The notes beneath the pieces are model-generated. The model searched no databases and was not told where the DNA came from. It was given only the letters and a program-made list of their open reading frames with translations. From assembly GCA_048939015.1 (NCBI GenBank), contig JBHLPW010000009.1, positions 1 through 64,000 on the forward strand: a stretch of 64,000 nucleotides of DNA. The letters run 5' to 3'. Every line of letters starts with the position of its first letter. Positions within the stretch are counted from its first letter, which is position 1. Shown here piece after piece: positions 2,417 through 24,285 of this stretch. The DNA comes from Promethearchaeota archaeon. Lineage in GTDB: Archaea; Asgardarchaeota; Lokiarchaeia; Sigyniarchaeales; SOKP01. Made by a program: the position numbers and the translations under genes.

Positions 2417-3916
2417 TTATAATTGAAGTGTACTATTAAAACTCCAAATATCGTTAATCCCTAAAGGATCATAGATTAGTGGTGTCTGGATTTCAAATAT
2501 TGACCTCCCCTGACCTGAAGGTATGACATCTTTTGAAAAATTAAAAGCTTGTCCTATTGTCCGATTTTCATTTAATTGATTCCAAAATTGATGGAAAAAC
2601 CATGATCCGGCAAACCCATCAGCGTTAGTATTGTCTCGCCAATACCATGAAAAAGTATCAGTAGTAGATGTGACTAAAATCGAATTAGGGAGATCATACC
2701 AACTCAATCCTATACTGGAATTATAGTTTAAAAAATTACCACTATAGCAAATGTCGATATTGATAAGTTTTCTTTTACAATTTATTCCACGAATAAGATC
2801 AACAAATTCAAATTCTGAAATATAACTATTGTCAGCTTCGAAATGAAATGTGGCGTTTCCATCGCCAAGAATCTTATTAGAACCATGGTCTACCATATAA
2901 ATTATTAATTGATCTTTCGAACCTATACCAGAAGCAAACGAACCTGAAATGCTAGCATTTAATTCTTTCTTAAACCTGCTCGAATTTACATCATTATTCA
3001 CTACATCAATGATGGCATTTGTCAAATCATTTGATATTCCATCGTTTGCATTTATATCTATTGTGTTATCATTTGTATGATATAGCATTAAAAAAATATT
3101 CTCATCTGTGTATCCATGATTCTTTAAAGTCCAATATACCTGGAGAGCTTGAGCCGGAAAACCGTCAGAATCTAAATTACTTGGAGGGGGCCTCGGGATA
3201 GGTGGAGGGAACCAATATTCTATTTTCACATCATCAAAAAGTACCATATCAGTACCAGTCATATTTCCTTCTACTGCTAATACTAAATGTAATTGGGTAA
3301 TTTCATTTTGAATAGCATTATCAGCAATTCCAGTTGTGTTTAAAAAAGTCCATCCTGTGAAAGTATCGTATACACCTTTTGACCAATCGGTTCTTACCAC
3401 ATCATTGCTAGAATTTAGCCACCGTAATCCTATTCGTGCTCCTGCACCTGTAGGTATAATCACAGCAGGAGTCTGTAAATCATTTTTTGTGATATTTACC
3501 CAGGCAGAAAGATTATAGGCAGCATATTTCAATAATGGATAATATTTCGTCCAATTGAATATATACTCTAAGTTTACATACCCTCCCCAGGAAAAAGATA
3601 TTAATTGCATAACTCCAGGAGTGCTATGACCTGGTATGGTATTATCAATTGCACCATACCCATTCGTGAAATTAGATATCCATCTACTTCCAGATTCATT
3701 ATTAAATAAGGCATCCCTTCCATTATTAAAGTCAGGTTCACCTTCTTTTCTATAGAAGTCATTAGCACTACAAAGTATAATTGCTTTTCGCTCTCCCGGA
3801 ATAGGTTTTCTTCTCATAATTGGAAGATATAATATCCATCCCGAAAGAACCAAACCGAGGGTAATTATCAATACAATTAAAGGCAGATATTTTTTAAGAT
3901 TATCGATAAATTTCAT
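2417..3916 (-). CDS. Membrane-anchored C13-family (legumain/GPI-transamidase-like, clan CD) cysteine peptidase with inserted carbohydrate-binding-like domain
   Basis: N-terminal TM; AQALQVYWTLKNHGYTDENIFLM; catalytic His in LIIYMVDHGS and Cys in INIDICYSG. Confidence 0.75.
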   Translation of the reverse strand: MKFIDNLKKYLPLIVLIITLGLVLSGWILYLPIMRRKPIPGERKAIILCSANDFYRKEGEPDFNNGRDALFNNESGSRWISNFTNGYGAIDNTIPGHSTPGVMQLISFSWGGYVNLEYIFNWTKYYPLLKYAAYNLSAWVNITKNDLQTPAVIIPTGAGARIGLRWLNSSNDVVRTDWSKGVYDTFTGWTFLNTTGIADNAIQNEITQLHLVLAVEGNMTGTDMVLFDDVKIEYWFPPPIPRPPPSNLDSDGFPAQALQVYWTLKNHGYTDENIFLMLYHTNDNTIDINANDGISNDLTNAIIDVVNNDVNSSRFKKELNASISGSFASGIGSKDQLIIYMVDHGSNKILGDGNATFHFEADNSYISEFEFVDLIRGINCKRKLINIDICYSGNFLNYNSSIGLSWYDLPNSILVTSTTDTFSWYWRDNTNADGFAGSWFFHQFWNQLNENRTIGQAFNFSKDVIPSGQGRSIFEIQTPLIYDPLGINDIWSFNSTLQL

Positions 3917-4063: not shown

Positions 4064-5485
4064 TCATTTTTTGGGTTCTTCTTGCAGGCTCTCTCTAATA
4101 GAAGGAGTTGAAAAATCTTTTTCATTTGGTTTTTCCAAAATCTCTAAAATATTATATTCTGTAATCATTTGAAGAACTCCCATAACTTTCATGCCGTGAT
4201 TATACTGTTCATTTGCATCGTAGAGATTTCTCCAACAGAAAGGACATTCAGTTGTTAATATATCCGCACCTACAGCATTTGCTTCGTCACATCGAAGACT
4301 TGCTGTTCTAATAGAGAATTCAGGATACCCTGCTCTCACGCCTCCACCGGCTCCACAGCACATACTATTAAGTTTTATACGATACATCTCTTTAAATTTA
4401 ATACCTACATCTTCTTCAAGTTTTCTAAGAATAATGCGTGGAACTTCATACCAAGCTTCGATTGCTTGATCTATTTTTCTACTATCCATTAAAAGATTAC
4501 TCGATTTTTCTATCATCTCTTGTTCTAAATCGACAGCGAAATGTCTACCTGTATGACAAGGATCATGATAGGTGACCACTTTCCCCTTTAATTCTTTATT
4601 TGGTTTGAATTTGATTTTGTTTTGCTCGATTAGTCTTGCAACTAATTCAAATGCATGTTGAGTTTTAAACGGTAGTTTTTCATCTTCAGCCATCCATTTT
4701 GGATAATCAATAGTAAAAGTTCTATAACATCCAGCACAACTGAAATAGACCATTTTCACATTCTTAAAAGCTTCAAGGTTTTTCTTCATTAATTCTTGAG
4801 CAGTATTAACAGCCCCTACTCTAAAAAATGGACTCCCACAACATACTTCATCTGCAACAAGGGTAAAATTCATTCCCAATTGTTCAAATAATTTAGCAGT
4901 TGCAATAGCGACTTCAACTTGCCGGTAACTAGCAGTGCATCCTACATAATAGGCAATTTTCGCATCCTTATTATCGATAAATTTACCCAAGCCAGCGTCT
5001 TTAGCCCATTTTAATCTTTCATTAGCTGCTCCACCATATGGATTATTTCGCTCTTTAACTAATTTATCTACTAACTCATGTTTATCGATCATTGGTACTC
5101 CAGATTCGATACAAGCTGCTCTTAAAGCTTCAATAATATCGACAGTACGAACCTTATTTTCACATTGAGCAGAACACTGACCACATGTAATACATGGTAA
5201 TATCACATCTCGAACTTCTTCAGTAAATTCTAAGTCTCCACTTAAAATAGAACGTGCAATCCAAATTTTTCCTGCATTCCAAAAAGCTTCCCATCCATAT
5301 TCAATACCTGCTGGACAAGCATCTACCATTCCTTCATAGAGAACAGTTCCCTGCTTTCCCGAATACTCTCCAATTCCTTCTTTATCAGGTTCACCTGAGT
5401 AGGCAAATCTACATGCTTTACAATGTATACATTTAAAGATATCTTTTCTTAATTCTTCCAATCTTTCCATTCCTGTTTTAGCCAT
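4064..5485 (-). CDS. Fe-S oxidoreductase, HdrD/GlcF-like (4Fe-4S dicluster plus two CCG domains)
   Basis: CIHCKAC...CP, CITCGQCSAQC, YYVGC, EVCCG, SCAGC, YHDPCH, MCCGAGGG, ECPFC; likely start MAKTG at 5485. Confidence 0.9.
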   Translation of the reverse strand: MAKTGMERLEELRKDIFKCIHCKACRFAYSGEPDKEGIGEYSGKQGTVLYEGMVDACPAGIEYGWEAFWNAGKIWIARSILSGDLEFTEEVRDVILPCITCGQCSAQCENKVRTVDIIEALRAACIESGVPMIDKHELVDKLVKERNNPYGGAANERLKWAKDAGLGKFIDNKDAKIAYYVGCTASYRQVEVAIATAKLFEQLGMNFTLVADEVCCGSPFFRVGAVNTAQELMKKNLEAFKNVKMVYFSCAGCYRTFTIDYPKWMAEDEKLPFKTQHAFELVARLIEQNKIKFKPNKELKGKVVTYHDPCHTGRHFAVDLEQEMIEKSSNLLMDSRKIDQAIEAWYEVPRIILRKLEEDVGIKFKEMYRIKLNSMCCGAGGGVRAGYPEFSIRTASLRCDEANAVGADILTTECPFCWRNLYDANEQYNHGMKVMGVLQMITEYNILEILEKPNEKDFSTPSIRESLQEEPKK

Positions 5486-5504
5486 TTTTATCAACCTCCA
5501 ATAT

Positions 5505-6995
5505 TTAAGGAAGAGCAAGTCTTCCTGGATGCATTATCATATTTGGATCAACGAGCTTTTTGAATGCTCTTAAATATTTCCAGTACATTCCTGCTTGATA
5601 ATATGCTTGGACATGAATATAAGGATCTGGTCTATAATTCAACCAACCTCGTTTTAACGCATATTCTGTAGTATCTCTATTTAAATCCTGAACCTTCTCA
5701 AAGTCAGACTGTTTTGTGCTATCAAAGCATACAATTGGCATACAGATTGCTTGTCTGCAACGTTCAATACTTGCAATCCACATAACGGGTGGGAAACCAT
5801 ATTCCTCCATCTTCTTTGTGTACATGTCAGCAAAATGTGCACACTCTGGCCATGGGGTATACCAAGTAATAAATAAGAAGCCTGCTTCCCAGAAACTATA
5901 AGGAATTGCAATCTTATTTGGTTTTCTCATTCTACTTGCTATTTGTTTTGGATGAAGTTCCTGTTTTACAATTGCATCCGGGTTTTTTGCTCTTTTCTTA
6001 AAATCCTCTGCCATCTTATCAATTCTGTTAGTAGCATAGTCTAATTCCTCTTGTGTTTGCGCCCATGTCTCCCAATTCATCCACCATTGAGAGATTCCTA
6101 TTTCTTTATAGAACTCATAATCATGTGGGACTTTATCCTTTGGCCATCGTGCCATTACTAGGGGATAATTGCCTCCCTGAACCATTACAGTGTTATGTGA
6201 AATACCAAATTCTTGCTTAGCAACTTCAAGAGTCAAATCTTGCATGTCGTAAGGGTTATCCATCCCCCAGACTACAACTGTTTTATATTTTGGATGTGGG
6301 TAAATTTTAACCGCAGCTTTAGTTACAACACCAAAAGCTCCTTGGCTCCCCATAAGAAAAGACCACATATCTGGGCCTATACCATACTTATAAAAAGGCT
6401 TAGCAAATGGTAGTGCCCAAGAACCAGTACGTACAACATCACCATTAGGAAATACTATTTCTCCACACATAAAATTATCTCCCTGCGGACCGACGCTAGA
6501 AGTATAAAGTGAGAAACCTCTATCTATAGCATCTCCCATAACTGTTGCTGCAGGAGGAGCTCCATCAGGAATTGGAGGAGCCCAATCTGGATGGTATTTG
6601 TGCATATAACTCCAAAGCTGTCCGTTTGTGACTCCAGGTTCTATGATGCAATAGCGATTCTCTTCATCAATCTCTATAATGCGATTCATTCTTCCCAAAT
6701 CAAGAAGCACTCCACCAGGTTTGATTGTTGGACACGCAAAACCACCTGATAATCCAGCTGAAACAGGACTCACTGCAATTTTTTCCGCAGAACAGTATAT
6801 TAAAATTTTCCTAATTTCTTCAACGTATCTCGGTCGGACTACAATATCTGGAATTTGTGATTCTAAACCCATTACAGATTTAGCCAAGTACGCTGCTGTG
6901 ATCGCCTTATTGTTTGTAGCATATTCTTTGCCGACAATACCAATCATCGCTTCTAAATCTTTTTCATCTGGTAATTTATAGCTCATATTTTCCAA
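5505..6995 (-). CDS. FAD-binding oxidoreductase, VAO/PCMH/GlcD superfamily
   Basis: PDIVVRP, LDLGRMNRIIEID, IEPGVT, GSQGAFGVVTK, C-terminal KKLVDPNMIMHPG. Confidence 0.9.
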   Translation of the reverse strand: MENMSYKLPDEKDLEAMIGIVGKEYATNNKAITAAYLAKSVMGLESQIPDIVVRPRYVEEIRKILIYCSAEKIAVSPVSAGLSGGFACPTIKPGGVLLDLGRMNRIIEIDEENRYCIIEPGVTNGQLWSYMHKYHPDWAPPIPDGAPPAATVMGDAIDRGFSLYTSSVGPQGDNFMCGEIVFPNGDVVRTGSWALPFAKPFYKYGIGPDMWSFLMGSQGAFGVVTKAAVKIYPHPKYKTVVVWGMDNPYDMQDLTLEVAKQEFGISHNTVMVQGGNYPLVMARWPKDKVPHDYEFYKEIGISQWWMNWETWAQTQEELDYATNRIDKMAEDFKKRAKNPDAIVKQELHPKQIASRMRKPNKIAIPYSFWEAGFLFITWYTPWPECAHFADMYTKKMEEYGFPPVMWIASIERCRQAICMPIVCFDSTKQSDFEKVQDLNRDTTEYALKRGWLNYRPDPYIHVQAYYQAGMYWKYLRAFKKLVDPNMIMHPGRLALP

Positions 6996-7203
6996 CCTAT
7001 TAAATACTCTTTAAATTTTTGATTTTCTATAATTAAAAATATTATTTTGGAAAATTAAGTACTGAATTTTAAATTTTCTTATATCTTTTTCATACTAAGT
7101 GTGATTTTTTCTTATAGAAATATTGTTTTGTTTAAAATAATACAATGTTTGCAAAAACTAACTCTAATGCACTATAGCTATTATAAGTTTTGTCGTTAGC
7201 GCT

Positions 7204-7454: not shown

Positions 7455-8258
7455 TTATTTTCTTAAAAACCTTTTTGAAGAATATCTGATACCCATAAAA
7501 AGAAAAAATAAAGAGAATATTATTGTTAAAGGTAAATTCCCTATAACAATATACGCAAAATTAGGTTCTGCTGAAAAAAAATAGATTATTATAGTTACAA
7601 CGAAATATATAAATGAATTCATCAGTGCAATCTTCCAATTTGGAGCTAAAAATCCTAATATCAAATTGGGAAGTAAGAATAAAATTATGATATTAGAAGT
7701 AGATAACAAGATTAAAAAGGGCATAAATCTTGTGAATAATTGATCGGACGTATAAAATTGGTTTAGATTAAAGAAATTATATATGAATAGTGTAGTATTA
7801 ATACTCAAAAAAATTAAAATCAATGATAATGGCCCTACAATCAACCATGATAACGAAATCCTTATCAATGGAGAGTGCATAATCTTTCCTCTCAAGTTCT
7901 GATCAATTATTTTTTCCATTTCATTGGAGTATATTTTTTCGGGGTTATCATATGGTGAAAATGTGTCAATAAAATCCTGTAAAATATTCCTAAGAATTAA
8001 GGCGACAAGATCATTGTTATCATTATCACTTACAATGGCAGCTCCGATTAATCTTTCTTCTGAATGAGTTACCAAAATTAATTTATTGTTATCCCCAAGA
8101 TCAACATTTTTTACTACACTTCCTAATGCTTCCCTGCTAAAATTAGAAACTGAAGAAAAAAAGCCGATTAGAATATTCTCATCATATTTTTTTTTCATAA
8201 AATTTTTAGAATATAATAAAATTCCATTTTCGTCCAAGATATACATGCTTTTTATCAT
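7455..8258 (-). CDS. Longin-like domain fused to about 4 TM helices
   Basis: MIKSMYILDENGILLYSKNF...LIGFFSSVSNFSREALG...LIGAAIVS...ILRNILQDFIDTF matches the longin beta-beta-alpha-beta-beta-beta-alpha-alpha pattern; hydrophobic C-terminal half. Confidence 0.65.
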   Translation of the reverse strand: MIKSMYILDENGILLYSKNFMKKKYDENILIGFFSSVSNFSREALGSVVKNVDLGDNNKLILVTHSEERLIGAAIVSDNDNNDLVALILRNILQDFIDTFSPYDNPEKIYSNEMEKIIDQNLRGKIMHSPLIRISLSWLIVGPLSLILIFLSINTTLFIYNFFNLNQFYTSDQLFTRFMPFLILLSTSNIIILFLLPNLILGFLAPNWKIALMNSFIYFVVTIIIYFFSAEPNFAYIVIGNLPLTIIFSLFFLFMGIRYSSKRFLRK

Positions 8259-8295
8259 TATTATACACTTTTTGCATACTTTTTAAATAAAATTT

Positions 8296-10161
8296 TTAGA
8301 TTTTTTCAAAGAATTCTACATAATCACCTAAATTAGCCTTAGATCTTTTAAAATTAAAAAGGCTAGAGCCAAATAGTTCTGTTAATTTAAGTATTATTTT
8401 TCTAGGGTCATCTTTTAAAAAGATTTTATATCTTTCATTTTTTCTTTCTTCCTGAATTTTCGCAATTTCATCTAAATCATATAATTTCTTAATCATAGCA
8501 TTATCAGGATTGTTTAATTCAACTGTTATGATTTCACCAGATCGAGGTAATTCTTTAATTAGGTTTTCAAAACTCTCTATTTTAGATTCTTGCTTTTTAA
8601 AGGTTAAAATTTGATCACAACCAGAAATTACTCCTTCAGGACCACAAAAGATTAAAATAACATGAAATTCTTTTTTAATTTTTTCTATATAGCTATTAAA
8701 CTTTTCATATTCCAATCTATTTAATATTTCATTAGGAATTAAAAACATTATTATCGTAGGGAATTGTATTAATGTTTTAGCAATCGAAAATAAAACGATT
8801 TCTAATTGTGTTAATTTAGAGTACACCTTATTTTTTTTATTTAATAAACCAGTTACTTCTAAAGCTTTTTTGATATATGACTTTGTACGACTAATTCTCA
8901 TTGGGGCTGCTAGAAATAGATCCCCCATTATCTGATCAATTTTTTGAGTAAAACCAGCACTCTTTAACATTTTATCTAACTTAGTTTTCCTATCTTTAAG
9001 GATTTCTTTTAAATTAGTTTTATATTTTATAGCTTTCTTAATTTTCATATTATTTATTTTTGAATCATATGCTGCGGGTAAAATAAATATCTTATCCAAC
9101 TCATCTTTACTTAATAATAGAATATTTCTCCCAAAAATCTCTATCTTCCCAGAATATTCGGGATAATTTCCAGAAATAGCCCATAATAAATAAAATAAAT
9201 TAAATCTATGCTGCTCATCATATAATAAACTTTCGTCATATAATATTCCTATTGATTTTCCTCTGTGAATACTAAATGAGACATTTGATATATTATTCTC
9301 TATTGATACATTGCTAAGGATTAAATGTTGTGAATTTACTCCAATTTTATCAAACTTTAATTTATTTATAACTATTTCATGAATTGTCTCAATGAGTTGG
9401 TATAAATGAGGTGGATTTTGCTCGTTCCAATTTCTAATTATATCTTCTTCATTAAATTCTCTCTCACTTATAATCTTTAAAAGTGTTTTTGAAAAAGAAT
9501 ATGATGGTAAAAGAGGATATTTTTCAAAGTTAATTTCTAACTCAATTGTAAAAAAGTTGAAGGAAATTCGAACTTCCCTGTAGTAAGGATTATTATCAAT
9601 TGGATAATTTTCATATTTTAAATCAACCAATTCAATTTCTTTATCTAGTCTTTTCAAATGTTTTTGAAATTCACTTCTTATGAGCTTCCTCATACGAGCA
9701 ATTATTTTACGGGGACTCACAAGACCATCATCATCAAAATCTGGATCTACAATAATTTCACCAAAATCTATTTCATCTTCAGATGGAGTATATATTTTTA
9801 ATAATGGAACACCTTTTTCTATAACATCCCTATTTGTGAAGAATAATACCTCAAAAAAGGATCTTTTATAGACTAAATTTAAGATTGATGCAATCCCAAA
9901 AGTTTTTTCTCTGTATGTCATCCAAAAACGTTTAGAATATCTAACAGCATCTAATATTTTTAATCTAAGGCGTTCTAATTCAACATCTCTAGAGTTCTTA
10001 AATTTATCTGTTTTCTTTACCTGGGAAATTTGAACTTCATTAGTACGCTTCATTTTAATATTCTTAAATTTATTAGAGATATGTACTTTCTTCAATACTC
10101 CTGATTTTCTTATTTTAAGACGTTTTAATGGAGGTTGCTTAAATTTTTTAGACTTCTTCAA
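8296..10161 (-). CDS. UEV/RWD (E2-like) domain(s) fused to a degenerate ABC ATPase domain
   Basis: IELEINFEKYPLLPSYSF...RNWNEQNPPHLYQLIETI; then NVSFSIHRGKSIGILYD (no Walker A), SGKIEIFG, KLTQLE (signature lost), IIMFLIP (Walker B lost); likely TTG start 10161. Confidence 0.65.
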   Translation of the reverse strand: MKKSKKFKQPPLKRLKIRKSGVLKKVHISNKFKNIKMKRTNEVQISQVKKTDKFKNSRDVELERLRLKILDAVRYSKRFWMTYREKTFGIASILNLVYKRSFFEVLFFTNRDVIEKGVPLLKIYTPSEDEIDFGEIIVDPDFDDDGLVSPRKIIARMRKLIRSEFQKHLKRLDKEIELVDLKYENYPIDNNPYYREVRISFNFFTIELEINFEKYPLLPSYSFSKTLLKIISEREFNEEDIIRNWNEQNPPHLYQLIETIHEIVINKLKFDKIGVNSQHLILSNVSIENNISNVSFSIHRGKSIGILYDESLLYDEQHRFNLFYLLWAISGNYPEYSGKIEIFGRNILLLSKDELDKIFILPAAYDSKINNMKIKKAIKYKTNLKEILKDRKTKLDKMLKSAGFTQKIDQIMGDLFLAAPMRISRTKSYIKKALEVTGLLNKKNKVYSKLTQLEIVLFSIAKTLIQFPTIIMFLIPNEILNRLEYEKFNSYIEKIKKEFHVILIFCGPEGVISGCDQILTFKKQESKIESFENLIKELPRSGEIITVELNNPDNAMIKKLYDLDEIAKIQEERKNERYKIFLKDDPRKIILKLTELFGSSLFNFKRSKANLGDYVEFFEKI

Positions 10162-13100
10162 CTTTAGGTACCTCCATTGCTTTATACCGGAAATATTGCT
10201 CCATTTTTGAATCAATCTGTTTTATTTCTAGTATTGAATTCTCGCCTATTTCCCCTTCAATTTCCTTGATTAAATTATCTATATTTAAATCGGTGAAAAC
10301 TGAATATTCGGTGCCAACTTTGTTTTCTAAAACTTTATCAATACCTTCAATCGATTCAAGTCGAGAAATCACATTCTTCCTTATTTTTTTAAATGTGATC
10401 TCAATAGATCTACCTTTACCTGGTAGAGTAGCTAAAAGCTCTATTGGTTCTCCAAAATCAATCATTCCTCGTTTTCTGCCAAAAATTGCTACTAAATGGC
10501 AAAATCGTGATTCTTCTGGATAATGAGTAATAACAATTAAAGTAGTTTTGAATTGTTCATTAATTTTAGTTAATACTAGCCAAAGGTTCTCTCTAACAAC
10601 AGGGTCTAATCCACTAGTAGGTTCATCTAATATTAAAAACATTGGTGAGTGTATTAATCCTATTGCAATACTAACTCGCCTTTTTTGTCCTCCAGAAAGG
10701 TTTTTGACATACTCATTCTCCTTATCATCTATTTCTAAGCTCCGTAAAATTCTTCGAGTTCTACTTATGATTTCTTTTTCACTAAGCCCATATTGTGTTC
10801 CAAAATATATTATATTCTCCAAGGTAGTAAAATCATTGTAAATCTTCCCTAAATCTTGTGGAACATATCCATATATTGGTCGAATTCTTTTTGAAGTACG
10901 CTTATTTATATTCATTCCGTAAATTTGACAAAACCCTGTAGTTTTTCTCATTCCAAGTAAACCTTTAATAAAAGTCGATTTACCTGCACCACTCTCTCCT
11001 AAAATTCCTAGTATTTTACCGTGTTTTACATTCATCGAGACAGAATCAACAATTAATTTTCTTCCAGCATATACACTAAGATTTTCACAATTTATAGCAG
11101 AAAACTTTTCTAAATACTCTCGTTCAAGTTTTCCTCCAATTCCTAACCTTAACTTTATCTTCTTTGTGATTGAAAGTCTTTGATGCAACTTTATAACAAT
11201 ATATAAAATGAATCCTAGCGCCTCAATCAATAACACATATATTAATAAATCAGACCAAGGTTTTGGATCAAATCTCTGATCATATCTCAATTCATCTATA
11301 ATAGACACACCGTAAGCTATATTTCTTAAATCACCTCCAAAATGGGGAATATCACCAATACCTCCAGTGTTATCACTAATGCATTGTGTAAACCATTCAA
11401 AAGTAAATCGAATATTTTCTGGTTGAAATCTATAATCATAAAGCCCTTTTGCACCAAAATAAGTTATAAAAAATGTTGAAGGTAGATCTAAATACGCTCC
11501 AAAAGCTGGCAACACTGAAAATGAGCCATCTGAAATTTGTGCATTTTTTAGAAAATCGATAGCTGCCATTTTAGAAAATGGTTCAGAATTTAGGAATTTA
11601 ATGAATATTTCAAGCCCATAATATGTAGAAATCACATCACTATGAAATCCTATAAACATCGAAAATCCCCCATCTGGATTTTGGCAAGATCTCATCCAAT
11701 GAGTTAGACTAATTTTATCAATAATATTAGATCCATTAACGATATCGAGTGAATTTAAAGCCCAATATGTACTCTCAATAGTTGAAATATTTGAATTAAT
11801 AAAATACAAGAATACTTGATAAAATGGTCCAAATAATGATAAAATAGTTTCAACATCACTATATACACTGAAACCACCATCAGGATTTTGGAGTTCTCCT
11901 AAATAATATTGAATATTGTCAATATTGGATGTATTTAACCACGTGTTTGTGAAAGGATAAAGCATTTTATAAATGTTTAATCCGCAATATGTCGCATAAA
12001 GAGTTGCATTTTCACCAGGGGAAGATCCAAAACCTCCTTCATAAGAATTATAACATAGATCAACAAAATTGATAATATTTTCTAAGATCTGTTTAGATAT
12101 TATTTCTTTATTTATAAAATCAGTGAAAATCTTAGGATTATAAGCATATAAAGCTGAAATTCCATAAAAGTTTGCCTCGATTGTAGTCTGACCGAATAAA
12201 GCATTTTTAGCTTGATAGAAATGAAGCCAATCATAATATTTTTCAGTAGCATTAATAAAATCTGATGTATGTATCAATTTTTCATCTTTAAGAATTTTAA
12301 GAGCATTCATAGTCGCCCATCCTGCTTTAAAATCTGAACTAGAATTTTGCCATGGACGTAAGCCAAAACCTCCATCTGGTTTTGCACAACTTAATATGTA
12401 AGATAGGGTCTTATTCGTATCAAATAATAAAGGTTTGTCTAGTCCTAAAATATGCAGTGTTGAAAGTGCATAATAAGTTGATTCAATATCAGAAAATCCC
12501 CCTGGGACACTTGCAAACCCATTATCAATGGTATTATAGAGAGAATTAAAATAAGTCCATATAGTAAGAAGATCTCCATAATTATATGTCAAATTCATTC
12601 CTAGATACGCTTTAATTCCAAAATTCGTTGTTTCTGCTGTTACTATGCTCAGATTACTATCTGTAAGTCTATAACTTCCTGTCAACCAGGTAGTATTAAT
12701 ATATTTTACAATATTATCATTTTTAAGGATATTACCCACGTTTAGAGTGTTTGCTAAATAGATAGCACAGGAGGTAGAAATTATATCAGTTTCATTTAAG
12801 AATGGTATTATTTTAAATCCTTTTCCATCATCTTTCAATGAATTGTTCAAATAATTAGTGATATTTTTTGTCTTATTTTGTTCGATTTTATTTGTCAAAT
12901 ATGATTTATTAATGATTTCTAATGTTTTTATAGCTTCATACGTAGAAATCATATTACCAAAACCACCTATATCTGAATATGAACCATCAGGGTTTTGCTT
13001 TTCAAAAATAAAATCTAAGAAAAAGTTAGGTTTAGAGCCTCTTATAAAAATATTTGAAATATTGTTTGGATTTACTAATTTAGAAGAAGTTTTACTAGCC

Positions 13101-13363
13101 AAAGAAAAATTTATTGAATCAATTGCTCTAAAATTAGTTTCAATTGAAGGTTCAATAAATAACCCCAACTCATTTTGATGACTCCATGTGAAAAGAGCAG
13201 ATTCTTCTTTAATTTTTTTAATTTCATCTCCCTTGATATATTCAATATATCGGATATTCACTAGAACTAAAGCAATGCTAGGTAAGCTGAAAAGCATAAT
13301 GATTAATATTATGAGCTTTAACCGTCGTTTACCTTGATGACTTAAATTTATCTTTAAACCTAT
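10148..13363 (-). CDS. Fusion: signal/TM, about 11 prenyltransferase-type repeats, TM helix, intact ABC ATPase and C-terminal regulatory-type domain
   Basis: Repeats such as QNPDGSY, CAKPDGGFG, LQNPDGGFS, CQNPDGGFS...DVISTYYGL; TM LLIYVLLIEALGFILYIVI; GESGAGKST, YVPQ, LSGGQ, ILDEP, ITH. Track start is 13297; frame is open to ATA 13363 behind GGTGA. Confidence 0.85.
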   Translation of the reverse strand: MGLKINLSHQGKRRLKLIILIIMLFSLPSIALVLVNIRYIEYIKGDEIKKIKEESALFTWSHQNELGLFIEPSIETNFRAIDSINFSLASKTSSKLVNPNNISNIFIRGSKPNFFLDFIFEKQNPDGSYSDIGGFGNMISTYEAIKTLEIINKSYLTNKIEQNKTKNITNYLNNSLKDDGKGFKIIPFLNETDIISTSCAIYLANTLNVGNILKNDNIVKYINTTWLTGSYRLTDSNLSIVTAETTNFGIKAYLGMNLTYNYGDLLTIWTYFNSLYNTIDNGFASVPGGFSDIESTYYALSTLHILGLDKPLLFDTNKTLSYILSCAKPDGGFGLRPWQNSSSDFKAGWATMNALKILKDEKLIHTSDFINATEKYYDWLHFYQAKNALFGQTTIEANFYGISALYAYNPKIFTDFINKEIISKQILENIINFVDLCYNSYEGGFGSSPGENATLYATYCGLNIYKMLYPFTNTWLNTSNIDNIQYYLGELQNPDGGFSVYSDVETILSLFGPFYQVFLYFINSNISTIESTYWALNSLDIVNGSNIIDKISLTHWMRSCQNPDGGFSMFIGFHSDVISTYYGLEIFIKFLNSEPFSKMAAIDFLKNAQISDGSFSVLPAFGAYLDLPSTFFITYFGAKGLYDYRFQPENIRFTFEWFTQCISDNTGGIGDIPHFGGDLRNIAYGVSIIDELRYDQRFDPKPWSDLLIYVLLIEALGFILYIVIKLHQRLSITKKIKLRLGIGGKLEREYLEKFSAINCENLSVYAGRKLIVDSVSMNVKHGKILGILGESGAGKSTFIKGLLGMRKTTGFCQIYGMNINKRTSKRIRPIYGYVPQDLGKIYNDFTTLENIIYFGTQYGLSEKEIISRTRRILRSLEIDDKENEYVKNLSGGQKRRVSIAIGLIHSPMFLILDEPTSGLDPVVRENLWLVLTKINEQFKTTLIVITHYPEESRFCHLVAIFGRKRGMIDFGEPIELLATLPGKGRSIEITFKKIRKNVISRLESIEGIDKVLENKVGTEYSVFTDLNIDNLIKEIEGEIGENSILEIKQIDSKMEQYFRYKAMEVPKVEEV

Positions 13364-13380
13364 TTTTTTATCACCTTAAC

Positions 13381-14355
13381 TTATTTCAAATAAGTCTCTT
13401 TTTCTTCCTCCTTTTGAATTCTAATTTGAAAAAACCTACGAAAAGAAGCAAGATCCTTACTCATAGAATTGATTTTTATATTTTCATCAATCATATAATG
13501 AATCAAACTGGTGAGATTTTCGTCAAAACCGTCCATTAAAATTTCAATTATTTCATTTCCACTCCTTAAGATGTTTTGAACGGGTTTAAATCTTTTAATT
13601 ACATCCATAATTTTTTCATTTAAATTTTCAATTGTAAATCTTGCTACTAAACCATAACTCGGTAATGATGATATTAAATTTTGGGGTGTATCGAACTCAA
13701 GTAACCTTCCGTTTCTCAAAATCGCGGCTTTATCACATATTAAAGCTGCTTCAAGATCATGAGTAATTATGAACATTGTAGTATTAAGACTTTGATTTAA
13801 TTTCTTTAAGTAGCTTAAGATATCATATCGCTTACTTGCATCAACACCCGTGGTTGGCTCATCAAGGAATAATACACCGGGATTATGAATTAATCCGATA
13901 GCCATCGATAAGCGTTTTTTCTCACCTCCACTCATATGTTTTACTGGCTTATTCCATGTATCTTCAGGTATATCTAAAATTTTAAATAGCTTCTTTGCTA
14001 CTTCTTTCGCTCGCTTTTTACTCATTCCATATGTTGAGGTAAAGATTTCAACATTAACCATTGGACTTAGATCAAAATATAAATTTAATAATTCTAACTG
14101 AGGTACATATCCAATTTTACTTAATATTCTTTGGTGATTAGATTTTTTTGCTGGAGATAAATTTGTGACCTTTACTTTTCCTGTCCAATTTTTCTTATCG
14201 ATTTGACATGTTAATACTCTAACTATTGTCGTTTTTCCTGCGCCTGAAATTCCAAATAATCCAATAATTTCTCCTTGATTTACATTAAAATTGACATCAA
14301 ATACAACTTGTTTCTCCCCGAATTTAACATTTAAATTATTGACTTCAACCATCAT
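13381..14355 (-). CDS. ABC transporter ATP-binding protein (DrrA/ABC-2 type)
   Basis: GISGAGKTT, YVPQ, MSGGE, FLDEP, ITHD. Confidence 0.95.
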   Translation of the reverse strand: MMVEVNNLNVKFGEKQVVFDVNFNVNQGEIIGLFGISGAGKTTIVRVLTCQIDKKNWTGKVKVTNLSPAKKSNHQRILSKIGYVPQLELLNLYFDLSPMVNVEIFTSTYGMSKKRAKEVAKKLFKILDIPEDTWNKPVKHMSGGEKKRLSMAIGLIHNPGVLFLDEPTTGVDASKRYDILSYLKKLNQSLNTTMFIITHDLEAALICDKAAILRNGRLLEFDTPQNLISSLPSYGLVARFTIENLNEKIMDVIKRFKPVQNILRSGNEIIEILMDGFDENLTSLIHYMIDENIKINSMSKDLASFRRFFQIRIQKEEEKETYLK

Positions 14356-14384
14356 TTTCTTTGATTTTAATGAGCTAATTTTTC

Positions 14385-15650
14385 TTACACCTCATATTTT
14401 CTTCTTTTAAAGATGAGAAAGGAAAATACAACTAAAATCAAGCTAATTCCAAGCAACCAAAAAAAATGATATCCCCATATAGACTGACCTTTTGTAATAA
14501 TACCACGTAATAAAGGATCTCCATGAGATAAAGGGAGTATATATGCAATAATTTGTAAATACGAAGGCATATTTTCAATAGGAATGAAAATACCACTTAA
14601 TAGAATTATCACTAAGTAAAAAGCTATAAATAATTGATTAGCCTGGGTTTTCGTTTTGCTTAATGAACTTATAAAAACACCCATAGTTATACCAGAAAAA
14701 CCTATAATAAACAGTGCTAAAAATAAATCTATTACAGAGCCTGCTAAAAACATACCCATAGCTAAAGCACTAATTAATAATAATGAACACTGAACTAGTA
14801 ATACAATTGTATATGTTATATACTTAGAAAAAATAATTTCTGATCTTGTTATTGGAGTAAGTAGAAGCCGGGCTATTGGTTTTTCTTGAACTACAATTAA
14901 TATGGATAAAACAAATGCTATGCCGAAAATCATAAATGAAAAAGTAAGAATTATATTAGAATTGAAACTAACGCTATAACCTTCTGGGATCGTAAACTCT
15001 TCAAACCCTTGTACTACAAATTGAGGTTTAAGGCTAGTGTCATTAATAAATATTTTAACTGAATCATAAACTGCATTTATATTTGTTTGAATATTTTGAA
15101 TATTTGAGGCATCCGGAATACAATCTACTAATCCAGGTAAACCTAATTCTAATAATTCAGTAAAATCAACGGGTAATGATATAATGATGTTAATTGTTCC
15201 TTCTAATAAGGCAGTCCTCGCATATTCCATTGCATAAATTTCTTCTGTAGCATTATAGAATTTAACTAATTCTAATAAAACTGATTTATTGACAGCATTG
15301 ACATACGGTATTGTATAATTGTCATGCCTTGATTCAAAAAAGTCGTTTGGATTTATAAATGTATTAGAATCATAAGATACTACAACACAAGGAATCGATT
15401 GAATCTCTTGGTTTGTATCGTTCATTGTTAAGCCTAAAAAAGCAATTATTAAAGGAGGCATTACAATAGCAAGTAATATATTGAATTTATCTGTCCATAG
15501 AAGTCGAAATTCTTTCTTAACTTGCATTATAATCCTAAAAATTTTATACTTTATACTTGAATTCTTCTTAATATCATTTTTAGATTCAACTTTTAAATTA
15601 TGACTTTTGCTTTTGATTTTCTTTATTTTTAAGTTAAAAGATTTTTTCAT
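14385..15650 (-). CDS. ABC-2 type permease with large extracellular loop
   Basis: KKEFRLLW.D, TM1, extracellular domain, RLLLTPITRSEIIFSKY, LSGIFIPIENMP, ILPLSH. Confidence 0.9.
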   Translation of the reverse strand: MKKSFNLKIKKIKSKSHNLKVESKNDIKKNSSIKYKIFRIIMQVKKEFRLLWTDKFNILLAIVMPPLIIAFLGLTMNDTNQEIQSIPCVVVSYDSNTFINPNDFFESRHDNYTIPYVNAVNKSVLLELVKFYNATEEIYAMEYARTALLEGTINIIISLPVDFTELLELGLPGLVDCIPDASNIQNIQTNINAVYDSVKIFINDTSLKPQFVVQGFEEFTIPEGYSVSFNSNIILTFSFMIFGIAFVLSILIVVQEKPIARLLLTPITRSEIIFSKYITYTIVLLVQCSLLLISALAMGMFLAGSVIDLFLALFIIGFSGITMGVFISSLSKTKTQANQLFIAFYLVIILLSGIFIPIENMPSYLQIIAYILPLSHGDPLLRGIITKGQSIWGYHFFWLLGISLILVVFSFLIFKRRKYEV

Positions 15651-15651
15651 G

Positions 15652-16806
15652 TCACACCTCTAATTTCTTAAACATATAGATGATATAAGCTAGTGAGACA
15701 AAAATCAAGGAACTTAAAATAATCCAAAATAACCTTGATAAATTTAGAGGTAAGCCTTTTAAAGTTATATCAGTTATTAGTGGGACAGCATTAGATAATG
15801 GAAGTAAATTCAGGAAAATTTGTACTCCCTGATTTGTAATATTTAAAGGAAGAATAGTTCCTGAAAAAAGAATTATAATTATAAACATAATTAGATACAT
15901 TTGGTTTGCACTTTGCTCTGTTGGACTTAAAACAGATATAAAAAGTCCAATGCACACTCCACTAAATCCAATCATTATTAGAACTAGATAGAAGTAAAAT
16001 AGTGAACCTAAACTATACAGTCCAAATAAAGCAATTGTGATTAATATTTCAGTCGATTGAAGCAACATAACTATAGAATTTGCTACTAATTTACTTAATA
16101 TTATCTCTCTCTTTGCTGTAGGTGTTATAAGCATCCGAGGAAGTGGAGCCTCAGCAACAATTGAGAGAGTGGTTAGATTCATAGTAGTTCCAAGAATTAT
16201 AATAGGTAAAATTAATGGGATTGCGTAATTCAGAATTGCAGACTCCCAAAAAGGGACATCAAATTCAAGATAAGGAACCATAATAGTAAAATTAGCAATC
16301 AACTCTGTTTGAGCTCTAAATAAAGCAATAGGTTCTTGAAGAGCAACCTCTATTGCAGTTATTGCGGTAGCATCAGATGCATCAATATGATAAATTAGAA
16401 CAGGATTAGTTTTGTTTTCAACTGATTCCGAGAAGTTTTCGGGTAATTCAATAAATATATCAATATCGCCATTCTGAAGAAAATTGTAGCATTTTTGATA
16501 AGCTTTATTATATTCTTCCTGATTTGTTGCATTAAAATATCTATAAAGGCTCCAAGATGAAGTTCCCTGTTTCATGATTGATATAAAATTACTGTCATAT
16601 TGAGAGGAATTAGTAGAGAAGTTATCATAAGTCGGCATATCATCACGAGTTATAATAGCAGACGTAAAAGATTTTGTAATTCCAACACCTGATGTAAGTC
16701 CGAAGATTAGAATGAGAATTATCGGAATTACAAACAATAAAACTAATGTTCGTTTATCAGATTTAATTCTACCAAATTCTTTTCTAATTAATCCACCTAG
16801 ATCCAT
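15652..16806 (-). CDS. ABC-2 type permease with large extracellular loop
   Basis: LIRKEFGRIKSDKR, RMLITPTAKREIILSK, FSGTILP, LLPLS. Confidence 0.9.
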   Translation of the reverse strand: MDLGGLIRKEFGRIKSDKRTLVLLFVIPIILILIFGLTSGVGITKSFTSAIITRDDMPTYDNFSTNSSQYDSNFISIMKQGTSSWSLYRYFNATNQEEYNKAYQKCYNFLQNGDIDIFIELPENFSESVENKTNPVLIYHIDASDATAITAIEVALQEPIALFRAQTELIANFTIMVPYLEFDVPFWESAILNYAIPLILPIIILGTTMNLTTLSIVAEAPLPRMLITPTAKREIILSKLVANSIVMLLQSTEILITIALFGLYSLGSLFYFYLVLIMIGFSGVCIGLFISVLSPTEQSANQMYLIMFIIIILFSGTILPLNITNQGVQIFLNLLPLSNAVPLITDITLKGLPLNLSRLFWIILSSLIFVSLAYIIYMFKKLEV

Positions 16807-17139: not shown

Positions 17140-17682
17140 CTAAATATTAATATATTCCCTTATATGAGAATTTAATGAAGGTTTAGGACGTCTATTATCA
17201 TTAATTATAAATTCATGAAAAATGAAATTATTATCATCAATAAATTCCCAAAATTCATCATATATTTCTTTTTGAGTCATACTACTTTTTTTTTTTGAAA
17301 TAAGCTCTTGTTTTGGTCTATTTATCTTCTTAAAATCTTTTCGTTCAAAGGATTTGCATTTTACTTTCTCACCTTCAATAATAAGTTGTTCGAAAAGATC
17401 AGTATCTTTATTCTCATTTAGATTAAAAGCTTTTACACCATTTCTTAACTTAGTTGAATTTGCATTATTTAATTCTAAATCAACTTTTTGATAACCTCGA
17501 ATTTGAAAATTATTATCCATGAAAAATTGAAAATGGTGAGGACATATTAATCCTTTATGGACAGAAATTGTGGTTAATTGAGATTTCTTATTTAATCTTG
17601 AAGTGGGTATACCAACAATATCTCTTTTTTTACAAATTGGACAAATTACTTCAATTTTATTTGTTCTACTAAGGATTTCCAT
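17140..17682 (-). CDS. Hypothetical protein with N-terminal CxxC...C-x(2)-H Zn-binding domain
   Basis: VICPICKK...LICPHHFQFFMDNNFQIRGYQKVD; same domain at 49440-50288. Confidence 0.6.
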   Translation of the reverse strand: MEILSRTNKIEVICPICKKRDIVGIPTSRLNKKSQLTTISVHKGLICPHHFQFFMDNNFQIRGYQKVDLELNNANSTKLRNGVKAFNLNENKDTDLFEQLIIEGEKVKCKSFERKDFKKINRPKQELISKKKSSMTQKEIYDEFWEFIDDNNFIFHEFIINDNRRPKPSLNSHIREYINI

Positions 17683-23679: not shown

Positions 23680-24285
23680 TTAGATTTTATTCTTTTTTTT
23701 ATTATTGTTATATCTTCTATATAGGCTATAATGCATAAAAAATGCTATTATATAATGACCGATAAAACACGAACAATATCCATAAAATAAAAAAATATAA
23801 CCTAAATATAATCCCATCAAGAATGGATAAATTAAATTTATCAAAAGCAATTTTAAGTTTTTAAAGGAAAACCATATATGAATGTGATAAAGGGAAAAAG
23901 CTAAACTTGAAATTAGGATGCTTATGTAATAATTCAAATTCAATAAAGAATTTAAAATGCCGATTGAATAATATCGAAAAATTAGCTCCTCCATTATCAT
24001 CGTAATTGAAAAAAAAAACAATACAAATCCTCTCTTTTCTTTATTAATAAATGAATCTATCAAATCGTGATTTTTAATTAATTCAAAAAGACGGCTATCA
24101 TAAGCAAAATTTTCTATTAAAATTCCAATGAGTAAAAGCAGTAATATACCTGAAATTAAGACTGTAATTGATGTTAAATTAGATTCTCTTATTGCGAAAT
24201 ATTCAATAAAAACCTGAAAAAATATGGGAATAATTAATATTATTGTTGTAAGGCAAATAATAACGTATTTCTTGAAATTTTTCAC
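23680..24285 (-). CDS. CPBP-family (Rce1/Abi-like) intramembrane glutamic endopeptidase
   Basis: EELIFR, FSLYH, GHYII motifs in a multi-TM protein. Confidence 0.8.
   Translation of the reverse strand: MKNFKKYVIICLTTIILIIPIFFQVFIEYFAIRESNLTSITVLISGILLLLLIGILIENFAYDSRLFELIKNHDLIDSFINKEKRGFVLFFFSITMIMEELIFRYYSIGILNSLLNLNYYISILISSLAFSLYHIHIWFSFKNLKLLLINLIYPFLMGLYLGYIFLFYGYCSCFIGHYIIAFFMHYSLYRRYNNNKKKNKI

Follow-up and report, generated by a model that had tools for sequence, protein, structure and literature searches.

A conserved six-gene ABC-2 transporter operon of Lokiarchaeia with a toroid-tethered ATPase, a pseudo-ATPase subunit, and a longin-domain membrane protein

Introduction

Arthropod ABCH lipid exporters, with TcABCH-9C as a solved example (PDB 9ju6, 8z01, and 8yzp), consist of one polypeptide that joins an ATP-binding cassette (ABC) nucleotide-binding domain (NBD) to a transmembrane domain (TMD) and homodimerizes (PMC12578276). 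The type V (ABC-2) systems YbhFSR, RbbA-YhhJ, DrrAB, and SagGHI combine two PF12698 permeases with DrrA-type NBDs that carry a C-terminal domain. To our knowledge, ectodomain-tethered NBDs, longin subunits, and a dead NBD as a third ATPase are absent from all four systems. Here, we describe an operon of six genes, g1 to g6, on a 64-kb stretch of Promethearchaeota archaeon (Lokiarchaeia; assembly GCA_048939015.1, contig JBHLPW010000009.1, positions 1 to 64,000), and we refer to this whole stretch as the window. Close relatives carry the labels Promethearchaeota and Lokiarchaeia. By sequence, the core of the operon is a type V exporter, a known kind, and it is predicted to drive export with ATP.

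The operon shares with ABCH a membrane domain with a large extracellular domain. It differs in that its TMDs and NBDs are encoded by separate genes in all loci examined, not as a single NBD-TMD half-transporter chain, in that its two TMDs are unlike, and in the addition of three accessory modules. Nor does it have the ABCA layout, in which TMD, NBD, and regulatory domain lie in one chain. With the four type V systems it has in common two PF12698 permeases and DrrA-type NBDs; however, all NCBIfam scores fall far under the cut-offs, and this operon contains no membrane-fusion protein gene, in contrast to the type V comparison systems. In the literature that we searched, whose coverage leaves out most subscription journals, we found no toroid-NBD fusion, no third dead NBD with tandem RWD domains, and no longin subunit with four transmembrane (TM) helices. 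A search of a viral fold library gave nothing informative, and the ESM Atlas returned only unnamed clusters.

Results

The operon comprises six intact minus-strand open reading frames (ORFs) in the order g1-g2-g3-g4-g5-g6 (window positions 7455 to 16806; Table 1). A first-pass annotation of the window had described six co-oriented genes with gaps under 40 nucleotides (nt) or short overlaps, and this description holds when g4 starts at ATA 13363. With two starts corrected, the successive spacings from g1 to g6 are 1, 29, 17, -14 (an overlap), and 37 nt, while counting g4 from its first ATG (13297) would widen the 17-nt gap after g3 to 83 nt. The same arrangement of GGTGAT, 6 nt, and ATA occurs in 11 loci of the genus. 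Among the compared genomes, for which f and g numbers (f1, f6, g22, g27) label families and genera and G and L codes (G136, L105) label genomes and loci, the start position of g4 reads ATA, ATT, or ATC in most loci of family f1 and ATG in other families. We thus predict that translation of g4 begins at a noncanonical ATA, ahead of the ATG in the annotation, so that the protein gains a membrane anchor at its N terminus; the database gene call of 1,049 amino acids (aa) lacks this helix. The probable start of g5 is TTG 10161, preceded by GGAGGT. A scan for promoters and terminators with a bacterial consensus returned matches at chance level.

Conservation of gene order in related genomes had been set beforehand as a test of the system, and the synteny survey agrees with it. 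The complete order is kept in 27 loci of other genomes, spread over ten genera of family f1 plus family f7, and four of these loci carry extra DNA between genes. Nine further loci, f2, f4, and f5 among them, match as far as their contigs reach. Because the order recurs in 27 complete loci, it is more than a chance arrangement, and we are highly confident that the six-gene architecture is real. In most loci g4, g5, and g6 lie next to one another; family f6 has the order g3-g4-g1-g2 with a divergent g5 and g6-like genes on separate contigs. All six genes are under purifying selection, with ratios of nonsynonymous to synonymous substitution rates (dN/dS) of 0.11 to 0.15 against the nearest ortholog and of 0.10 for the g5 pseudo-NBD (one pair only). 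Genus-specific elaborations also occur. In genus g22, g4 and g5 are separated by two additional genes, one for a protein with a longin-like N terminus and the other for a multi-TM protein (L057:9186-10613 and L067:9462-10943), and in genus g27 an in-frame insertion of approximately 30 to 75 residues breaks the second RWD domain of g5 (L060:7460-7700 and similar loci).

Among 400 Asgard genomes, the g4 ectodomain and g6 each have matches in 86, of which 81 are common to both, and full-length g5 is present in approximately 86. All matching genomes belong to the Lokiarchaeia, the class of the window, except for one lineage, f16. Its genome G136 carries g1 to g4 and a pseudo-ATPase without RWD domains, with no g6 match. 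The f16 genes are nested among Loki sequences in the tree, and the f16 branch of g5 is long; the nesting suggests that this operon arose by transfer followed by secondary loss. Within the genus of the window, the operon is found in only about 20 of 53 genomes, and the operon queries matched nothing in three genomes of the order that are single contigs, an absence that may explain why the operon had not been described.

Both g1 and g2 score above the cut-off for PF12698, giving two ABC-2-type membrane domains that are 31% identical (BLAST E value, 2e-42). Hydropathy resolves g1 into TM1, an extracellular domain, and five more TM helices, and this extracellular domain holds six N-glycosylation sequons against 1.9 expected. 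The best PDB match of g2 is TcABCH-9C (9ju6/8z01; E value, 4e-13). The permeases had initially been likened to ABCA and ABCG lipid exporters; insect ABCH is instead the closest solved relative, and the PDB matches are to ABCH only.

The AlphaFold2 (AF2) model of g4 (pLDDT, 86.6) follows the order TM helix, barrels, TM helix, ATPase. Its repeats and ATPase had been recognized in the first pass, but g4 has two TM helices, not one, and its 12 repeats form two barrels. The ectodomain is an alpha/alpha toroid of PF00432 repeats, as in prenyltransferase beta subunits, with a Pfam Prenyltrans match (E value, 2e-36) and weak SQHop matches. Its best structural matches are the beta subunits of RabGGTase, GGTase-I, and FTase. 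The RabGGTase beta-like barrel spans residues 46 to 695, in a register that runs end to end (residue 695 corresponding to 304); that barrel is therefore discontinuous in the model, with the second barrel apparently inserted in it. Unlike prenyltransferase beta subunits, the g4 toroid is extracellular, doubled, and membrane tethered at both ends, and it lacks zinc ligands and an alpha subunit. Specifically, no DxC of the zinc triad (Asp-x-Cys...His) is conserved in 36 g4 orthologs, and the His position by register is an invariant Asn681. D678 and R680 are also invariant, as are the polar residues S575 and S579. Squalene-hopene cyclase is likewise built of two helical barrels, one inserted in the other, with hydrophobic loops, and g4 may be analogous to the class II cyclases in these respects. 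However, g4 faces outward, its best structural matches are prenyltransferases, and DxDD is missing from 34 of the 36 orthologs, the two scattered hits lying at different positions. The absence of squalene-hopene cyclase from the top 50 structural rows does not rule out cyclase kinship.

The three ATPases appear as a free, a membrane-tethered, and an inactive form, as had been supposed. The Walker A, Q-loop, signature, Walker B, D-loop, and H-switch motifs of g3 are intact in 29/29 orthologs, and the catalytic motifs of the g4 NBD (Pfam ABC_tran; E value, 1e-26) are intact in 39/39, while g5 has lost every catalytic motif and retained the fold. The L-P-x-x-G junction first noted in all three (LPSYG, LPGKG, and LPRSG) falls in one alignment column and was not seen in those other ABC ATPases of the genome whose tails were read. 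We rejected the possibility that g5 is a decaying pseudogene: its frame is open in 38 orthologs, with dN/dS of 0.10 to 0.2. Modeled together as a complex, the g5 pseudo-NBD and the g4 NBD scored 0.00, which counts neither way on pairing.

The N-terminal region of g5, first read as one E2 variant (UEV)/RWD-like region ahead of a degenerate ATPase, is of that fold by profiles but comprises two tandem domains. Although g5 itself has no Pfam match, its second domain belongs to a repeat family with 111 hits among 50% representatives, whose members exceed Pfam cut-offs for UQ_con (E value, 4e-12) and RWD (E value, 5e-9), apparently in part through neighboring repeats. The top PDB rows of the family profile are a Plasmodium UEV and BRCC45 (E values, 0.05 to 0.1). 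AF2 secondary structure assigns the second domain an alpha-beta4-alpha topology, with YPxxP and a C-terminal Trp, and predicts the same topology for the first, whose profile match is weaker (E value, 2e-4). Structure searches with the g5 model returned rows filled by NBD matches. The domains are not those of an active E2: HPN is absent from 141 repeats of the family, and the g5 domains have no conserved Cys. Two other assignments were discarded, an EF-hand in the first domain (calmodulin matches mostly at E values above 0.05) and Rpb8, whose match at an E value of 6e-4 dropped to 0.3 with a deeper profile.

The first-pass assignment of a longin domain followed by TM helices in g6 is borne out, with four TM helices. 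The profile of its N-terminal family finds Bet5 best (E value, 4e-4), and VAMP7, AP-3 mu/sigma, Trs23, SRX, Mon1, and the related roadblock protein MglB rank with it ahead of unrelated proteins; Pfam Fuz_longin_1 matches 8 of 25 family members (best E value, 9e-9). The g6 TM region is not a truncated ABC-2 permease by hhalign (probability, <1%), though one ortholog has a Pfam ABC2_membrane_3 match. By profile, the g5 and g6 domains fall in the same fold families as BRCC45/BRE, FANCL, and E2 variants and as TRAPP/AP longins, respectively; unlike those proteins, the g5 domains are here joined to a pseudo-ATPase and the g6 domain to four TM helices, and both lie in a transporter operon. The suggested control by ubiquitin/ESCRT-like factors or small GTPases may exist but is unsupported, because the genome has expanded sets of both the RWD/UEV and the longin families and the conserved neighbors of the operon include no gene for ubiquitin, ESCRT, or GTPase proteins (a Ras-like gene lies near only three loci). 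In a published survey, the GTPases of MK-D1 were likewise, in general, not in operons with longins (PMC10933270). Relatives of a 578-aa repeat protein of this genome fuse UEV/RWD-like repeats to RING or zinc ribbons.

In 12 of 161 genomes of the class (6 genera), a 31- to 34-nt bulge-helix-bulge insert splits g3 at the same D-loop codon. Its central helix pairs 4/4 in ten genomes and 3/4 in two and shows compensatory changes that go along with synonymous positions of the exons; removing the insert restores the frame in 12/12 genomes. The D-loop codons of g3 in the window are uninterrupted, with no insert at the equivalent site near 13850. As of 2020, cbf5 was the sole archaeal mRNA reported with such an intron (PMC7714728).

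Several genes recur near the operon. The zinc-ribbon gene stands beside it in 18 loci of three genera, on the 5' or 3' side; it belongs to a family that is expanded in Loki genomes and has at least seven paralogs in this one. An FAD-binding oxidoreductase with a CCG/Fe-S pair (4064 to 6995, minus strand) is linked in about 20 loci, nearly all of f1, which may be neighborhood inertia. A membrane-anchored peptidase C13, legumain/caspase-like (2417 to 3916, minus strand), is encoded close by in six loci of the genus, and a gene for an Rce1-like (CPBP) CAAX protease (23680 to 24285, minus strand), 7 kb away, is linked in only two other loci. Sister ABC-2 operons with the same NBD family fuse an NBD to winged-helix repeats with Pfam PCI, UFM1 ligase, and DDRGK-like matches. 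In the sister operon at L109, a Ras-family small GTPase gene (6204 to 7049) sits between the operon genes.

Table 1. Positions of the operon genes, their parts, and related features (window coordinates unless a locus is named)
Feature	Position	Strand	Description
g1	15652..16806	-	Type V (ABC-2) permease, 384 aa; Pfam ABC2_membrane_3, E 9e-25; hydropathy
g2	14385..15650	-	Second type V permease, 421 aa; Pfam, E 1e-27; paralog of g1
g3	13381..14355	-	Soluble ABC ATPase with DrrA-type C-terminal domain; TIGR01188 drrA, E 4e-55
g4 start signal	13361..13375	-	Putative; Shine-Dalgarno GGTGAT, 6 nt, then ATA
g4	10148..13363	-	TM anchor, double toroid ectodomain, TM helix, active ABC ATPase, 1071 aa; Pfam and AF2
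g4 ectodomain	11288..13231	-	Residues 45-692; 12 helical repeats, two barrels
g5	8296..10161	-	Tandem RWD/UEV-like domains and pseudo-ATPase, 621 aa counted from TTG
g5 RWD/UEV-like pair	9358..9993	-	YPxxP and conserved Trp in second domain; no Cys, no HPN
g6	7455..8258	-	N-terminal longin, then four TM helices, 267 aa; profiles and hydropathy
Zinc-ribbon gene (CPxC...CxxH)	17140..17682	-	Candidate loosely linked seventh gene, 333 nt from g1
Predicted tRNA-type intron of g3	L093-L104, ~1500-1560 in each, e.g. L101:1501-1557		Sequence only
Five-gene version outside the class	L105:6118-13791 (G136) and L106:333-1343 (G120)		
Winged-helix/subtilase sister operons	L048:4262-12491 and L110:577-7765		Membrane-anchored subtilase with MBTPS1/GIFT-like domain
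Other sister operon	L109:2048-11249		Two NBDs (one with TrmB-like N terminus), one permease
UEV/RWD repeat protein of this genome	L089:5434-7170 (G000:C33:17433-19169)		578 aa, three to four repeats; UQ_con, E 9e-10

Discussion

We tentatively favor a lipid-type exporter with a tethered, noncatalytic acceptor barrel, which g5 and g6 would regulate and position. The gene set, its order, the domain folds, the topology, the motif loss, and the purifying selection are directly supported; from them we infer the subunit pairing, what the cargo is and in which direction it moves, and how g5 and g6 contribute. The exporter would be of the YbhFSR/RbbA-YhhJ/ABCH kind, with g1 and g2 as the membrane heterodimer and g3 and the g4 ATPase as the active heterodimeric motor. 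Since the g4 motor is tied through a TM helix to the double toroid, the toroid would be held beside the extracellular domains of the permeases. Its membrane-proximal barrel would be a catalytically inactive prenyltransferase-beta funnel whose loops carry hydrophobic insertions, most likely accepting or presenting hydrophobic cargo from the pump, either an isoprenoid lipid or a molecule linked to a lipid, comparable to LptC or MlaD in other lipid transporters. LptB2FGC and MlaFEDB are analogous in function only, through a TM-anchored extracytoplasmic domain beside the permease; the folds are unrelated, and the acceptor there is not fused to an NBD. The g5 protein would be a structural or regulatory subunit without ATP hydrolysis whose RWD/UEV pair serves as a protein-binding platform, and g6 may anchor or localize the assembly through longin pairing. 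An isoprenoid-lipid transport machine had been proposed at the outset, and export of a lipid-type cargo survives as the best reading, without the proposed ubiquitin/ESCRT/GTPase link. A bolder version, in which an ABCH-related, Asgard-specific lipid exporter carries an isoprenoid-binding double barrel on its motor, takes its gating from the dead ATPase, whose tandem UEV/RWD domains read a ubiquitin-like or protein signal, and is placed by the longin, is distinctly unlikely.

Several observations weigh against a lipid exporter. The lipid-type cargo itself is putative, and no lipid-synthesis gene is a conserved operon neighbor beyond family f1. The operon is present in about half of the Lokiarchaeia genomes searched, and this patchiness, together with the three single-contig genomes without a match, argues against an essential step of membrane biogenesis. 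Alpha/alpha toroids are general-purpose scaffolds, and two unrelated proteins of this genome also have one. In sister operons a subtilase ectodomain replaces the toroid, which suits a nonlipid role equally. In prokaryotes, PF12698 permeases also include exporters of drugs and peptides, and SagH and DrrB are among the NCBIfam matches here.

The covalent connection of one NBD to the ectodomain through a TM helix would also suit a mechanotransducer or sensor, in which the ATP cycle moves extracellular domains to act on or sense a surface partner, as in NosDFY or FtsEX, and g5 and g6 relay state inward. Close NBD structures include NosF with its R-domain, and the membrane-anchored subtilase-GIFT proteins and NBD-winged-helix fusions of the sister operons fit the same scheme. 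We nevertheless consider it unlikely: the best solved permease match is a true lipid exporter, and the conserved neighbors of the operon include neither a partner enzyme nor a transcription regulator. The presence of three NBD chains per permease pair raises the question of whether there are two assemblies, with g1 and g2 on a g3 homodimer and g4-g5-g6 as a receptor-like module of one active and one dead NBD. The adjacency of g4, g5, and g6 in most loci and a pseudo-NBD conserved as well as the active genes are in keeping with such a split, and the ATA start suggests that g4 may be made at a lower level than g3. However, g3-g4-g1-g2 hold together in f6, where g5 is divergent, and where a sister operon has just two NBD genes, one is of the g3 type and the other of the g4 type, making two assemblies quite improbable.

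Export of a polar or protein cargo (a glycoconjugate of the surface, a peptide, or a drug), in which the toroid would act as lectin or chaperone, would agree with the peptide and drug exporters among PF12698 type V permeases and with the polar character of D678, R680, N681, S575, and S579. We regard this as very unlikely, as the repeats are of the prenyltransferase type, not the glycosidase type, and no glycosyltransferase or peptide precursor is conserved among neighboring ORFs of at least 130 aa. Finally, the ectodomain might be an active extracellular enzyme with a noncanonical site, acting either on the exported lipid or, by prenylation, on a surface protein. The invariant D678-x-R680-N681 sits at the position of the third zinc ligand of RabGGTase, and the barrel-in-barrel arrangement recalls squalene-hopene cyclase, but the absence of a conserved DxC, the replacement of His by Asn, and the lack of a conserved DxDD, together with an operon that has no alpha subunit gene, render an enzyme highly improbable.

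A membrane-spanning NBD-ectodomain fusion and a separately encoded third dead ATPase under selection are unusual among ABC transporters. Asgard longin and E2-like domains mostly have no known partner, and here both occur in one conserved transporter operon, which offers a defined complex for expression and structure solution. If the bolder version described above were correct, longin and E2-variant domains would govern membrane transport in an archaeon as parts of one defined complex. Were the cargo an archaeal lipid, the operon would bear on lipid movement in Asgard archaea and on where ABCH/ABCA-type exporters have their prokaryotic roots.

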